This document shows, piece after piece, positions 2,624 through 18,339 of a stretch of 18,339 bases of DNA. The stretch's first letter is position 1, and each line of letters opens with the position of its first letter. Both the position numbers and the translations under genes were made by a program. The notes beneath the pieces are model-generated. The model ran no database searches, had not been told where the DNA came from, and worked only from the letters and a program-made list of their open reading frames with translations. The stretch lies in UHGV virus genome UHGV-0075702. One strand, 5' to 3'. The stretch comes from a virus.

Positions 2624-3228
2624 TAAGCAGTTGCCCCTTCTAATTCGTCTCGTCTGATGTTGTAAACGTCCTGCGCTTTGTGCTGCTCCGGCGTCCCTTC
2701 GAGCATCTTCCACGCTTTGGCGAACGCCTGTTTAAGCTCTTCTACGGTGTTTTTCTGCATTGCTGCGTCAGTGAATGCTTTTAGAACCTGTTCAGGTGTA
2801 AGTGATGGTTTTGATTGCTTTGCTGCTGCGTTCTGCTGATGTTTATGCTCGTCTGTATCTGCATCTTTCGCATCATCAATGCCGAACAAACCATTGAGGC
2901 AATACTTGCGCGCATAAGAACTTGTAGCTCCAGTAACTTGTGCAGAATCCATTCCTTTCTTGCTTTCTTCCTCTCTTGCGAGAGCGGTTGCCGTATGGCG
3001 GTTTTCGCCATCGGTAATAGTTGCCGTGGCTTTCACATAATACCGATCACCAATCAACACAACTTCATCGCTGATTGATAAAAACAGGCCATTCAGTAAC
3101 GGCTTAACGCCTTCAAGAATGTCTTCGCAGCTTCTGTATTTATATTTACCGAATGAGTTGTACTGATTCTTTGGCGCGTTCAGATTCTCCTGAATAGCTG
3201 CCAGTCTTGCATAAAATTCTTTGCTCAT
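2623..3228 (-). CDS. erf: ERF-family single-strand annealing recombinase (P22 Erf-like)
   Basis: Translation MSKEFYARLAAIQENLNAPKNQYNSFGKYKYRSCEDILEGVKPLL... closely matches my recollection of P22 Erf. Start chosen at the internal ATG (3228), 11 nt after the stop of the upstream small ORF. Confidence 0.8.
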   Translation of the reverse strand: MSKEFYARLAAIQENLNAPKNQYNSFGKYKYRSCEDILEGVKPLLNGLFLSISDEVVLIGDRYYVKATATITDGENRHTATALAREEESKKGMDSAQVTGATSSYARKYCLNGLFGIDDAKDADTDEHKHQQNAAAKQSKPSLTPEQVLKAFTDAAMQKNTVEELKQAFAKAWKMLEGTPEQHKAQDVYNIRRDELEGATA

Positions 3229-3777: not shown

Positions 3778-4745
3778 TTAGTAGGTTATTTTTGTTGCGA
3801 ATACTTCGCCTTTTACGATGGCTGTTATGATATTTTTAGCAACATCTTCTGATGCGCCAACCTTGATAAGGTCAGCAAGTATTTTGTTATTTACTTCTTT
3901 CCGGTGAGCTTTATCCTTTGCTCTACGCTCTTCTTCTTCCTTGATTCTTTTTTCTTCTGCTATTCTGGCTTGCTCTTTTGCTTCAGCCTCGCGCCGGATT
4001 CGTTCAGTCTCCTCCTGTGCTTTTCGGCGTTCTGCTTCAATTGCCGCCTGCTTTTCTCTTTCAGCTCGTTCTGCTGCCTCTTTTGCTTCGCGCTGTGCTC
4101 GTTGCTCGGCTTCAATGCGTTCACGCTCTGCACGTTCCGCTGCGGCCTTAGCTTCTGCTTCTCGCCTTGCTGCTGCTTCAATTTCGGCTTTTGCCTTTGC
4201 TTCGGCTTCTGCTCTGGCTTTCTCTTCAGCTTCTCTTTTTAAGCGTTCTTCATGCTCTCGCTTTTCCTGCTCCGCTTTGAGTCTTGCCTCTTCTCTTTGG
4301 CGGTCAAATTCGCGATCCATCAAAATCGCTATTTCATGGTCAGACTCAATTTGCTTTGCGAGAGCTTCAGCTGCTGCCTTAGCTTCTTCTTCGGCTTTAA
4401 TCCGCGCCTGTTCCTCCTCATAATCAGTAAGAGGCTGGCGAGCCTTGCTTTCAGTTCATCAAGGCGATCGCGCACTGTCTTGCGGTTGGCATCAATTAGC
4501 TTTGGAATTTCCTTCAGTTCAGCAACAAGGTCTTTGCCAAGACCATCGAGATATGTTTTCGTCTGCGCAACTTTATACGCCAGAGAAGCGATCTCCTTTC
4601 TGCCCTTTGCCGTTGTGATATCAGGCACAAAGGACATAACTTCACGTTCAACCTTTTGGAGAATTTCTTCAATCTGGTCGGCAGACTGAAATACAGTCAT
4701 TGCATTTGCTTTTTCAATAACAACTAAATCTGTTACTTCACTCAT
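3778..4745 (-). pseudogene. frameshift-interrupted gene: N-terminal domain (4329..4745) plus Ala/Glu/Arg/Lys-rich TolA-like repeat and C-terminal domain (3778..4323); pseudogene, sequencing error or frameshifting not distinguishable
   Basis: Two track ORFs abut. The downstream frame stays open upstream to about 4455 and reads as plausible protein (LTDYEEEQARIKAEEEAKAAAEALAKQIESDHE...), while the tail of the upstream frame (RLASLLLIMRRNRRGLKPKKK...) looks like out-of-frame junk. GGAGG RBS before the ATG at 4745. Confidence 0.5.
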
Positions 4746-4786: not shown

Positions 4787-4879
4787 AAAGAAGATTTCCA
4801 ATAATCAGAACAAGTCGGCTCCTGTTTAGTTACGAGCGACATTGCTCACATAGCAGACTCGCAAATCTGCTATAGGTGC

Positions 4880-5038
4880 TTATTCGCATCGCATGACAAC
4901 ATCAAATTTTTCGAGATTACTTTGTCGCAACAATCCTTCTTCGACGCGGTCAGCTTTTCTATAATTATCAAATTCGAAATGTTTAATTACTTCTTTCGTT
5001 TCTCGCTCTATAACTTCAACGATGTATTTCTTATTCAT
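4880..5038 (-). CDS. small ORF (52 aa, MNKKYIVEVIERETKEV...)
   Basis: Not in ORF track. ATG overlaps the TAA of the upstream 89-aa gene (TAATG). No family recognised. Confidence 0.3.
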   Translation of the reverse strand: MNKKYIVEVIERETKEVIKHFEFDNYRKADRVEEGLLRQSNLEKFDVVMRCE

Positions 5039-5307
5039 TACTCATCACCTATGGCTTTTTTGATAGCTTCGCGAGCCTTATTAACAGCTCCATACCATTC
5101 TGGATATGTTGTCGTTGTTCTATTTTCGGCTTGCTTAAGTAATAACTGAAGTGCTTCAAGTAAATCCGGTGCAGCCATAGCTAATCTTCCATTTGCTACG
5201 GCCTCTTCTGTTTCTTTACCGGATAGGGCCATTCCCGGGTGTGAAAATAAAATTAAGCCTGCAAAATTGGCTTCTCGCCAATTTTTCCTAGTACCTTTAA
5301 ATTCCAT
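5038..5307 (-). CDS. hypothetical protein (89 aa)
   Basis: Track ORF with weak RBS. No family recognised. Confidence 0.4.
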   Translation of the reverse strand: MEFKGTRKNWREANFAGLILFSHPGMALSGKETEEAVANGRLAMAAPDLLEALQLLLKQAENRTTTTYPEWYGAVNKAREAIKKAIGDE

Positions 5308-5346
5308 GTTAGTCTCTGTTGTTTATGCCAAAAATAAAGGCCACCA

Positions 5347-15973: not shown

Positions 15974-16177
15974 ATGTACCGTATGGACAAAATCAGAGAA
16001 TGGTTCAGTTACAGCTTCGGAGGACTGACTGCGATGGGTGGCATTCTCTCCCTGAATGACTGGGCTGTCATCATTGGTATTCTTTGTACTGTCGGCACAT
16101 TTGGCATCAACTGGTACTACAAGCGCAAAGAGCGCGAGGACAGATTGAATGGCAATGTCACCGGCACTACGAAATAG
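15974..16177 (+). CDS. class II (2-TMD) holin, probable pinholin with antiholin/holin dual start
   Basis: 67 aa with two hydrophobic segments ([17 protein letters not shown]; [20 protein letters not shown]), a charged C-terminus, and M1-Y-R-M4 dual start. Followed by a SAR endolysin as in phage 21. Confidence 0.8.
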
Positions 16178-16652
16178 CGTAATAGCGGCGATAAGTGGCG
16201 GGGCTATTGCTATAGCATCTGTGTTAATCACTGGACCAAGTGGTAACGATGGTCTGGAAGGTGTCAGCTACATACCATACAAAGATATTGTTGGTGTATG
16301 GACTGTATGTCACGGGCATACAGGAAAAGACATCATGCTCGGTAAAACGTATACCAAAGCAGAATGCAAAGCCCTCCTGAATAAAGACCTTGCCACGGTC
16401 GCCAGACAAATTAACCCGTACATCAAAGTCGATATGCCGGAAACAACGCGCGGCGCTCTTTACTCGTTCGTCTACAACGTGGGTGCTGGCAATTTCAGAA
16501 CATCGACGCTTCTTCGCAAAATAAACCAGGGCGATATCAAAGGCGCATGTGATCAGCTACGTCGCTGGACATATGCTGGCGGTAAGCAATGGAAAGGTCT
16601 CATGACTCGTCGTGAGATTGAGCGTGAAATCTGTTTGTGGGGTCAGCAATGA
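16149..16652 (+). CDS. SAR endolysin (T4-lysozyme/GH24-like, phage 21 R-type)
   Basis: N-terminal signal-anchor-release domain rich in Gly/Ala ([19 protein letters not shown]) followed by a lysozyme domain (...[27 protein letters not shown]...). Resembles phage 21 R21 as I recall. Start overlaps the holin 3' end. Confidence 0.9.
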
Positions 16653-17092
16653 ACAGAGTAACCGCGATTATCTCCGCTCTGGTTATCTGCATCATCGTCT
16701 GCCTGTCATGGGCTGTTAATCATTACCGTGATAACGCCATCGCCTACAAAGAGCAGCGCGATAAGGCCGCATCCATCATCGCTGACATGCAGAAGCGTCA
16801 ACGTGATGTAGCAGAACTCGACGCCAGATACACAAAGGAGCTTGCTGATGCTAACGCGACTATCGAAAGTCTTCGTGCTGATGTTTCTGCTGGTCGTAAG
16901 TGGCTGCACGTCAAAGCAGTCTGTCCGGACATGCATAAAACCACCGCCGCCTCCGGCGTGGATGATGGCGCCAGCCCCAGACTTACTGACACCGCTCAAC
17001 GGGATTATTTCGTTCTCAGAGAGCGCATCGAAACCATAACTAACCAATTGAATGGCCTGCAAGAGTATGTGAGATCACAGTGTTCATATTAG
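16649..17092 (+). CDS. Rz: Rz i-spanin
   Basis: Internal ATG overlapping the endolysin stop (ATGA). N-terminus [31 protein letters not shown] closely resembles lambda Rz. Confidence 0.8.
16842..17039 (+). CDS. Rz1: Rz1 o-spanin (lipoprotein) embedded in the +1 frame of Rz
   Basis: Signal peptide with lipobox (LLVVSGC) followed by a proline-rich segment ([10 protein letters not shown]), wholly inside Rz. Confidence 0.7.
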
Positions 17093-17130
17093 AAAAGTCT
17101 TATCATAAGATTTTTGTATATGGATGCATT

Positions 17131-17505
17131 ATGTCTCAATACGCGCGCGCCGCTTTAATCGCTTATCATTTGGTTGCTGATAGCTCAATGCCTCCTCGTG
17201 ATGCATGGGATGCAGCTGTCGCAGAGGTTACAGAAAGCGAATCGTCAAGAAAGAAGATATGCCCAAGGACAACATTTCTCGCCCTGGCGGATAGCGGTTA
17301 CCTCAAGAATGTAAAACCACTGCATGGGGAGAAAAAGGGCGGTAAGTTGTACCAAAGGGCAATTGAAGTTGCGAATCTGATTCTTGATTTACCCGGAATC
17401 AGTAAAGCTGAATTGGTTGATAAAACTGGTTACAAAGACAGGCAAGGGTCTTATGACCTGATTCTCGCTCTGTATCATCATGAGCAACTCCAGCGACCGG
17501 AATAA
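17131..17505 (+). CDS. hypothetical protein (124 aa from ATG 17131; GTG 17080 alternative) in the moron position after Rz
   Basis: Track ORF 17080..17505. No family recognised. Sits where lambda carries bor. Confidence 0.5.
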   Translation: MSQYARAALIAYHLVADSSMPPRDAWDAAVAEVTESESSRKKICPRTTFLALADSGYLKNVKPLHGEKKGGKLYQRAIEVANLILDLPGISKAELVDKTGYKDRQGSYDLILALYHHEQLQRPE

Positions 17506-17622
17506 TTATCCCAGCATCAGTGTCAAAAATAGGCAGTGATACGCTATTTTCCTGAAAATACTTTACTAACATTTTATGAGAATTATCCTAGTAAAGTGTT
17601 TATTTAAAAGGAGTTTGGGTTT

Positions 17623-17826
17623 ATGAAAATTCTCTGGGTCATCAGTCTTTTGTGTAGTGCTATTGGATTTATTGAAGGAATCCTCGGGGCTTTCGGTGCT
17701 CAGAGTGCTCCACAACAGGCTGCAGGTGCAGCAATGGGAGTAGCATGGGCAGTTATTCCATATTGTATTTGTCGTGCTATCCAACAATTGCGCCCTCGAG
17801 AAGTCATTATTAAAAAGGAAGAATGA
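17623..17826 (+). CDS. small two-TM membrane protein (67 aa)
   Basis: AAAGGAG RBS 8 nt upstream. Two hydrophobic segments (ILWVISLLCSAIGFIEGILGAF; AAMGVAWAVIPYCICRAI) and a basic C-terminus. Preceded by an AT-rich promoter-like tract and followed by a terminator hairpin. Confidence 0.55.
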   Translation: MKILWVISLLCSAIGFIEGILGAFGAQSAPQQAAGAAMGVAWAVIPYCICRAIQQLRPREVIIKKEE

Positions 17827-17857
17827 CCAGATCTTATCCGGTGTTTTTTCTGTCTAA

Positions 17858-17880
17858 GCCTCGCGTCGCGGGGCTTTTTA
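17858..17880 (+). terminator. intrinsic terminator after the small membrane-protein gene
   Basis: GCCTCGC-gtc-GCGGGGC (7-bp stem, one G-U) followed by TTTTTA, ending 12 nt before the HNH ATG. Confidence 0.5.
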
Positions 17881-17891
17881 TTGGAGCCAGC

Positions 17892-18242
17892 ATGCCACCA
17901 CGAACCCCAAAAGCCTGCCGCGTTCGCGGCTGCCGCCCAACCACGACTGACCCGTCAGGCTACTGCGAAAGCCACAAAAGCGAAGGCTGGAAACAATACA
18001 AGCCAGGCCAGTCCCGTCACCAGCGCGGCTACGGTTCGAAGTGGGATGTTATCCGCGCGCGCGTGCTGAAGCGTGACAAGGGCCTGTGCCAGTTGTGCCT
18101 GCGTGCTGGTGTGGTGCGCGAGGCGAAAACCGTTGACCACATCATTCCTAAAGCGCATGGCGGCACAGATTCAGACAGCAATCTGCAGAGCCTGTGCTGG
18201 CCGTGTCATAAGGCGAAGACGGCCCGTGAACGACTGAAGTAA
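17892..18242 (+). CDS. HNH endonuclease (terminase-associated type)
   Basis: Internal ATG with GGAG RBS 5 nt upstream. Zinc-finger and HNH features: CRVRGC...C, DHIIPKAHGG, NLQSLCWPCH. HNH genes next to cos and terminase are typical of HK97-like packaging modules. Confidence 0.8.
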   Translation: MPPRTPKACRVRGCRPTTTDPSGYCESHKSEGWKQYKPGQSRHQRGYGSKWDVIRARVLKRDKGLCQLCLRAGVVREAKTVDHIIPKAHGGTDSDSNLQSLCWPCHKAKTARERLK

Positions 18243-18259
18243 GAACCAGTTCCCACTGC

Positions 18260-18339
18260 CAGAGGGGAGGGGCGGGTCAAATCTCTGTGACCTGACGTCT
18301 TCCGGACTGCCCGCCCCATCGTTTTTTTATACCCGCGAA
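18260..18339. other. GC-rich dyad element after the HNH gene; cos-site candidate
   Basis: GGGGCGGG ... (33 bp) ... CCCGCCCC inverted repeat followed by ATCGTTTTTTTAT, at the expected cos location. The window ends here, so the context is incomplete. Confidence 0.25.

Follow-up and report, generated by a model that had tools for sequence, protein, structure and literature searches.

In the 18,339-nucleotide (nt) viral genome UHGV-0075702, the whole of which is referred to as the window hereafter, two plus-strand genes lie between the spanin genes Rz/Rz1 and an HNH endonuclease gene, namely an open reading frame (ORF) of 124 codons, ORF-A, and one of 67 codons, ORF-B (Table 1). Both reading frames and the AAAGGAG ribosome-binding site of ORF-B were recovered as described in an initial annotation, which had regarded the pair as a single moron-like insert, and the question arises whether the two genes form such a unit and what they might do for the phage. 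From our point of view, the balance tips slightly towards the interpretation that 17093-17882 represents a variable cargo slot with two independently moving accessory genes, of which ORF-B is a moron encoding a membrane-acting factor of the exclusion or defence type. The cargo slot past Rz belongs to textbook lambdoid biology and this kind of element is itself already well known; what is new is the ORF-B cassette as a widely disseminated moron that, as far as can be predicted, comes equipped with a promoter of its own.

The window represents an SfI/HK97-type lambdoid mosaic prophage: positions 17000-17900 are 98.4% identical to the right end of the Shigella flexneri serotype-converting phage SfI and 99.6% identical to several Escherichia coli chromosomes. 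The HNH module occurs in 1099 of 5426 E. coli genomes, 51 of which also carry ORF-B (about 1% of complete genomes), and in modules without ORF-B the homology to the window starts at 17865-17892. Elsewhere in E. coli prophages, the interval from Rz to HNH is empty (locus L072), holds two other hypothetical genes (L073) or carries iss/bor on the minus strand (L071). The latter case, an O157:H7 prophage that shares the HNH-terminase module and has iss exactly in the ORF-B slot, bears out the earlier remark that lambda-type phages carry bor at this site downstream of Rz/Rz1. The bor/iss gene is a prophage-expressed lysogenic-conversion gene, but its orientation is opposite to that of the plus-strand gene ORF-B and its product is a lipoprotein of the outer membrane, whereas the ORF-B protein lacks a lipobox and is predicted to form an inner-membrane hairpin. 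ORF-B further deviates in composition, with a GC content at third codon positions of 0.28 versus 0.53 in Rz and 0.67 in the HNH gene.

The edges of the ORF-B cassette, at approximately 17561 and 17882, emerge when the window is aligned (MAFFT) with three loci that have diverged flanks. Homology begins at CTTTACTA, with none upstream, and ends past the T run of the terminator, which establishes both boundaries; the segment 17506-17561 has no homology to the equivalent regions of loci L013, L014 and L020. Within the four aligned loci the blocks CTTTACTA and GAATTATCCTA are invariant and the intervening spacer varies. The two hexamers noticed initially, TTTACT and TATCCT, are indeed present 16 nt apart, within a spacer between ORF-A and ORF-B (17506-17622) whose length of 117 base pairs (bp) and AT-rich composition (30.8% GC) were likewise correctly described. 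A -35/-10-like pair 30-33 nt before the ATG was found in 78 of the 103 loci with full flanks. Among 44 distinct element sequences, TTTACT was kept in 40, TATCCT in 34 and TATCAT in seven, and the element occurs in at least 18 upstream and at least 21 downstream flank classes from unrelated contexts. The MAFFT alignment is independent support for the conservation of the hexamers beyond this count, and since synonymous divergence (dS) in the coding region is saturated between copies, the invariant non-coding blocks are evidently under constraint. The GGAG of the Shine-Dalgarno sequence is kept across related cassettes as well.

At the other end of the cassette, the intrinsic terminator was located where the annotation had placed it; it consists of a stem (17856-17876) and a T run, folds at -13.7 kcal/mol (z = -3.1 versus shuffles) and ends about 12 nt before the ATG of the HNH gene. 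Most related cassettes have a homologous CCTCGC-loop-GCGGGG hairpin and a T run 3' of the gene, with varying loops. The weaker hairpin directly past the ORF-B stop (Table 1) was also considered as a terminator and rejected, as it is no better than shuffled sequence and probably not significant. Because the hexamers travel with the gene across different flanks and the homology has defined edges, we judge the cassette to be a moron, which would consist of a weak sigma-70-type promoter-like element, a strong ribosome-binding site, the 67-codon gene and the terminator. Morons have been defined as added DNA of deviant composition with their own promoter and their own terminator (Hendrix/Juhala, restated in PMC3594210), and ORF-B is added DNA, deviates in composition and has its own terminator. 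The promoter-gene-terminator layout proposed at the outset thus holds for ORF-B, on comparative evidence and with an element that is promoter-like, and does not hold for ORF-A.

The promoter deserves a closer look, as several observations weigh against it. TTTACT-N16-TATCCT matches the sigma-70 consensus at 8 of 12 positions and, with the threshold of the promoter scan at 9 of 12, was not listed by it; the pattern used for counting the motif fixes the spacing, and the conservation of the hexamers is therefore partly given by construction. In addition, the variants of the cassette that reside in tail operons have no terminator and keep the -10-like block alone, as the palindrome TTAGGA-N4-TCCTAA, which could be a regulator site instead of a -10 element. 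As such, one can imagine that the upstream blocks are a regulator-binding site or an mRNA leader and that ORF-B is expressed by late read-through only, which would make it mobile cargo and not a prophage-expressed moron. We consider this rather unlikely, since two conserved hexamer-sized blocks are held at a fixed distance of 16 nt across a variable spacer and at a constant position relative to the start codon, the seven TATCAT variants are nearer to TATAAT, and the paired terminator would be purposeless inside a read-through operon. If the moron interpretation is followed, transcription of ORF-B is predicted from the hexamers to start near 17596. A second exact TTTACT-N16-TATCCT is found at 3890-3917 on the plus strand, where 0.04 would be expected by chance; it lies in a minus-strand coding region of repeated acidic and alanine codons, with no plus-strand gene downstream, and in view of this coding context was set aside as a probable chance match.

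Gene 15 of phage HK97, a moron that is said to go back to Juhala et al. 2000 and Cumby et al. 2012, resembles ORF-B in several respects. Both are genes of small inner-membrane proteins (predicted in the case of ORF-B) with an own promoter (promoter-like for ORF-B) and terminator, both are of deviant composition and present or absent among related lambdoid phages, and both have relatives outside prophages; moreover, some ORF-B relatives take the very position of gene 15, between tail chaperone and tape measure. The gene 15 product, gp15, is a YebO-like superinfection-exclusion moron product (PMC3594210). There is no sequence relationship between the two, as ORF-B did not match YebO in a Pfam scan extended to E = 1, and ORF-B differs from gp15 in having two transmembrane (TM) helices and in sitting at the lysis/packaging junction, not in a tail operon.

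The annotation had further proposed that ORF-A and ORF-B are bounded jointly by the promoter and the terminator. This does not agree with the map, as the promoter-like element lies between the genes and would serve ORF-B only. The conceivable alternative that they constitute one two-gene system, for instance toxin and partner or sensor and effector, acquired jointly, draws on the fact that they are co-oriented neighbours not only in the window but also in SfI and 51-52 E. coli genomes. From our point of view it is the least likely of the alternatives and very improbable. A gene of the ORF-A family, DUF6979, lies upstream of ORF-B in only 19 of 81 loci, all of the SfI-like group, and ORF-B lies downstream of DUF6979 in only 18 of 60, so that the two have to be regarded as independent cargo and are not gained or lost together. 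Around 197 E. coli genomes hold DUF6979 without ORF-B, and DUF6979 otherwise precedes a minus-strand gene of 60 codons followed by lambda-type terminases, a P22-type terminase, or the HNH gene directly.

The junction between the two genes is itself recombinational. The common DUF6979 allele of E. coli prophages has its own terminator, GGCCTCGC-TTTTA-GCGGGGC with a T run, and in the window this terminator and the last approximately 16 codons of ORF-A have been replaced, with a homology break at 17457 from which the recombinational origin follows. In locus L185, DUF6979 is followed by the HNH gene without ORF-B, but the downstream sequence diverges; the locus was therefore rejected as a clean empty-site comparator, and its divergence makes the acquisition look like a recombinational replacement of the 3' end of DUF6979 and its terminator, not like a simple insertion. 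The DUF6979 terminator (L003/L004, approximately 3010-3045), including its TTTTT run, closely resembles that of the ORF-B cassette, GCCTCGC-GTC-GCGGGGC-TTTTT, and this likeness could mark a former recombination site. At the upstream end, the 38-nt linker behind Rz is conserved along with the opening codons of the cargo gene: in E. coli UPEC85 (L154, 1594-2027, equivalent to 17093-17150 of the window) an unrelated gene of 131 codons takes the place of ORF-A, with linker, ATG and the residues MSQYA retained, which suggests that cargo genes may be swapped by recombination within a common translation-initiation region.

The ORF-B cassette is correspondingly found in many combinations. Among IMG/VR genomes it is mostly located between the spanin genes and the terminase, where it pairs with unrelated lysis cassettes (signal-anchor-release (SAR) lysozyme, GH24 or CHAP) and with both lambda-type and HNH/P27-type packaging modules. 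In locus L020 the cassette lies between imperfect direct repeats of about 50 nt, GCGCATCGCACGCGCACATCAAAGAAAGTCTTTCTGCTGTGAGCCTGG (approximately 4860-4920) and GTGCATCGTACGTGCAGATCGAAGAAGGTCTTTCAGATGTGAGCCTGG (approximately 5255-5310), which may be a trace of its acquisition. In E. coli O39:NM F8704-2 (L005, 3320-4700), an IS3-family element sits at the 3' end of ORF-B, before the HNH gene; homology to the window ends there at approximately 17821 and RefSeq does not call ORF-B.

Turning to the protein, both ORF-B and ORF-A are real genes under purifying selection, as demonstrated by ratios of nonsynonymous to synonymous substitution rates (dN/dS) of 0.04-0.34 and 0.15-0.40, respectively, with dS saturated between distant copies. 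Two transmembrane helices had been assumed for ORF-B, and the evidence agrees: hydropathy peaks at residues of approximately 3-26 and 33-54, followed by a charged C-terminal tail (RPREVIIKKEE), coincide with an AlphaFold2 model that establishes a hairpin of helices 2-25 and 29-55 (predicted local distance difference test score, pLDDT, of 85). The product is predicted to be an inner-membrane hairpin with both termini inside (N-in/C-in), both from the positive-inside rule and from relatives in which cytoplasmic zinc ribbons are fused to one end or the other. Two other possibilities were dismissed. Helix 1 is no plausible signal peptide, as the -3 residue of a putative cleavage site at A26 is usually F or M, and a lipoprotein is not indicated, as a lipobox is missing, with Leu preceding a Cys11 that is itself not conserved.

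The initial annotation had assigned neither gene to a family. For ORF-B this remains correct with respect to Pfam and NCBIfam, which like PADLOC v2 (E<=1) gave no above-threshold match, and its sole family match was to phrog_12304 (E 5.5e-44); ORF-A, on the other hand, is a member of Pfam DUF6979. In agreement with the annotation, no characterised spanin or holin accessory protein turned up as a homologue in the profile searches. ORF-B nevertheless belongs to a large conserved family that is new in the sense that no Pfam or NCBIfam model covers it. Close homologues form 45 clusters across Enterobacterales (54-96% identity) with the invariant core SAPQQAAGAAMGxAWAVIPYC, and in the wider family the core motif SAPQ[QE]AAGAA...AVIPYCxARA is nearly invariant. 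A profile search of 1.84 billion representative proteins gave at least 1105 matches at E<=1e-3, 154 of them at E<=1e-10 (clusters being representatives at 50% identity), and the motif is present in every match inspected. A scan of reference genomes located the family in Pseudomonas, Xanthomonadales, Alpha- and Betaproteobacteria, Bacteroidota, Spirochaetota, Acidobacteriota, Chloroflexota and others, and it is also found in SAR324. Among 109 superfamily members (alignment A4, P0094-P0200), zinc ribbons are attached N- or C-terminally (Zn_ribbon_3 in 11, DZR in 10) and one member is fused to a protein kinase domain. It is also new that ORF-B is left unannotated in both GenBank records of the SfI reference (NC_027339.1 / JX509734.1, tblastn match 37695-37895); RefSeq genomes of E. 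coli call it a hypothetical protein. We also considered a type IV secretion pilin, as ORF-B has a match to T4SS_pilin (PF18895) of 13.8 bits versus a cut-off of 26.6, and sub-threshold matches occur in 11 of 109 relatives (best E 2e-4). This identity was rejected in view of the sub-threshold score, the lack of any family match in a plasmid collection, and the predicted topology, to which that of VirB2-type pilins is opposite.

Relatives of ORF-B are not confined to the lysis/packaging junction. In Pantoea (L017-19) the gene lies between tail chaperone and tape measure, in Buttiauxella and Pseudomonas (L027/28) 3' of tail protein K, in Morganella, Yersinia, Xenorhabdus and Edwardsiella phage Edno5 immediately past SLT-type tape measures, and in Ewingella alone beside icd, all of which are recognised moron or cargo sites. 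Several of these relatives have a partner gene beside them (L006 5216-5560, L017 5252-5779, L024 5210-5731, L027 3791-4126, L043 3928-4956). It encodes a secreted protein or a lipoprotein and follows 3' of the ORF-B homologue in Morganella, Pantoea and Buttiauxella, with an ATGA overlap at the stop of the homologue in Morganella and Pantoea. In Xenorhabdus, the gene is located upstream and its product is a secreted protein of the DUF4431 type that is related to the partner in Morganella. The window has no such gene beside ORF-B, and no universal partner gene of the family was found in the neighbourhoods examined.

These positions also bear on the question whether ORF-B could be a lysis accessory, i.e. 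a second holin, an antiholin-like protein or a timing modulator expressed late with the lysis cassette. Class II holins and pinholins such as S of phage 21 are similar in that they have approximately 70 residues, two TM helices, N-in/C-in topology and a charged tail and are encoded near lysis genes. Both helices of ORF-B carry small-xxx-small patterns (G15xxxG19; G35xxxG39xxxA43), most IMG/VR loci place the gene directly past the spanin genes, and Q-antiterminated transcription would take it in. We hold a lysis role to be quite unlikely. A PF16080 holin is already present in the window and paired with the endolysin, and ORF-B lies past the spanins and DUF6979, with its own promoter-like element and terminator. 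It had no holin match in Pfam (E<=1) or PHROGs (E<=0.1), and just one of the 109 superfamily members matched Phage_holin_3_6 (E 0.004). Unlike class II holins, members of the family also reside far from lysis genes, within tail operons, beside icd and at chromosomal sites unrelated to phages, and the cassette combines with lysis genes that are unrelated to each other.

Alternatively, the protein could be a small membrane-damaging toxin, either an abortive-infection effector or of the addiction type, which would be held low by a weak promoter or an antisense RNA. Oligomerisation and membrane depolarisation are common among small hydrophobic hairpins that have glycine/alanine-rich faces, the predicted promoter is weak, and the relative next to icd has been kept alone at what appears to be a degraded prophage site. 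Such a toxin seems unlikely to us given that there is no conserved antitoxin partner, with neighbours differing by context, and no minus-strand promoter-like site in or near ORF-B; conservation across phyla, zinc-ribbon fusions and the kinase fusion would better fit a structural or interaction module.

The more specific suggestion, that ORF-B is a superinfection exclusion or defence-type factor that would block the entry of incoming phage DNA in the manner of HK97 gp15, is tentative and represents the weakest step of our explanation. It is favoured because of the analogy to gp15 and the repeated placement of relatives beside tape-measure and tail-tip genes. Several findings argue against it: ORF-B is not homologous to gp15/YebO, SieA or Imm and matches no PADLOC model; distant members of the family sit in ordinary parts of chromosomes, where none of the scanned neighbours is a phage gene, as in Xenorhabdus, where a distant relative lies between speA/speB and a PEBP gene; and the association of both the ORF-A and the ORF-B families with defence islands concerns a handful of loci. 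As to the expression of the cassette, the following sequence of events appears most likely. In the repressed prophage, late-promoter transcripts would stop at tR' and the weak constitutive promoter would provide low-level expression of ORF-B, whose product would insert N-in/C-in into the inner membrane. After induction, Q-modified polymerase would ignore the ORF-B terminator and continue into the HNH and terminase genes. One could speculate, and the idea is a doubtful one, that the family acts on a conserved inner-membrane process and that temperate phages of enterobacteria and Pseudomonas have repeatedly captured it together with portable transcription signals (promoter and terminator), which would make it a new class of superinfection-exclusion or membrane-level defence factors; the lysis/packaging junction and the neighbourhood of tape-measure or tail-tip genes would be its preferred sites.

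As to ORF-A, it represents a full-length DUF6979 protein (PF22399), with 97.7 bits versus a cut-off of 27 (E 7e-28) and residues 1-120 aligned to positions 1-126 of the 127 of the profile; it also matches phrog_5039. A longer, mechanically derived reading frame begins with a GTG at 17080, ahead of the Rz stop at 17092, which it overlaps. The family has no solved structure, and sequence searches of the PDB with single sequences and family profiles gave no match. An AlphaFold2 model built on 40 sequences (pLDDT 92.5) has seven helices, and according to this model ORF-A is a soluble all-alpha protein; no structural relative was found. In the family alignment W26, K42, C44, P45 and G56 are invariant, within the motif S-R-K-K-G-C-P. 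ORF-A matches no family in PADLOC (v2, E<=1) and nothing meaningful in NCBIfam, and literature searches with DUF6979, RefSeq protein accessions and motif strings found no papers. Since the promoter scan listed no plus-strand promoter-like site after Rz, ORF-A is most likely expressed from the end of the Q-dependent late lysis transcript, as its final gene.

The present analysis adds DUF6979 as phage cargo of the gaps between lysis and terminase genes and between Q and holin genes. It is also found in the lysis-to-terminase gap of a Leclercia prophage and, between Q and holin genes, adjoining a colicin-immunity gene. In distant taxa, DUF6979 genes adjoin Thoeris ThsB, bSEFIR, a restriction system, PbeA or the candidate defence gene PDC-S52 (Pfam DUF6988). 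The latter lies next to a DUF6979 gene in Massilia (L060 3198-3845) and next to an ORF-B relative in Dokdonella (L026 5521-6261), and the families of ORF-A and ORF-B hence share a neighbour type in distant bacteria. Defence-system models of PADLOC are matched solely by such neighbours of distant relatives and by neither protein itself. From these neighbours in distant genomes, which are the sole indication, we infer a possible role of ORF-A in phage-host conflict.

It is chiefly through morons that temperate phages alter their hosts, and functions are known for only a few of the encoded products. In this context, the ORF-B cassette, with its mapped boundaries, is ready for experiments, and a profile of its large, motif-conserved family can be built from the alignments made. 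The recurrent placement beside tape measures suggests exclusion at the step of DNA injection, which is testable, and DUF6979, as a cargo gene tied to phage lysis modules and defence islands, becomes a candidate defence or counter-defence protein.

Table 1. Positions of the cargo slot and its flanking genes in the window.
Feature	Position	Strand	Details
Holin	15974-16177		PF16080, E 4e-21; adjoins endolysin, overlaps endolysin start
Lysozyme	16149-16652		PF00959
Rz	16649-17092		PF03245, E 5e-40
Rz1-type ORF embedded in Rz	16842-17039		VVSGC lipobox
Linker, Rz stop to ORF-A ATG	17093-17130	+	38 nt, AT-rich, 23.7% GC
ORF-A	17131-17505	+	ATG start, 124 residues, 375-nt coding sequence; same coding sequence called by RefSeq
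Spacer of SfI-like group, ORF-A to left edge of ORF-B cassette	17506-17561	+	
Promoter-like element	17562-17589	+	TTTACT 17562-17567, 16-nt variable spacer, TATCCT 17584-17589
Shine-Dalgarno AAAGGAG	17607-17613	+	9 nt before ORF-B ATG
ORF-B	17623-17826	+	67 residues
Weak hairpin + GTTTTTT past ORF-B stop	17826-17842	+	-3.3 kcal/mol, z = -0.2
Intrinsic terminator	17856-17882	+	9-bp stem AAGCCTCGC/GCGGGGCTT, 3-nt loop, T run
HNH endonuclease gene	17892-18242	+	PF01844, E 8.5e-17; phrog_144

Known RNA families and tRNAs were not found in the spacers of the slot. On its right-hand side, the HNH gene is the first gene of the packaging module, which in relatives continues with a P27-family TerS and TerL, and is thus a neighbour outside the insert. 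On the left, the lysis cassette (15974-16652) looks like a pair of pinholin and SAR endolysin: the holin is a 67-residue HP1-family protein whose gene overlaps the lysozyme start with its 3' end, and the N terminus of the lysozyme is hydrophobic and rich in Gly and Ala. Lastly, the SfI record, which is linearised to end at the cohesive-end site, stops 75 nt past the HNH stop, so that this site should be near 18317, and the window appears to cross it within the region 18243-18339.

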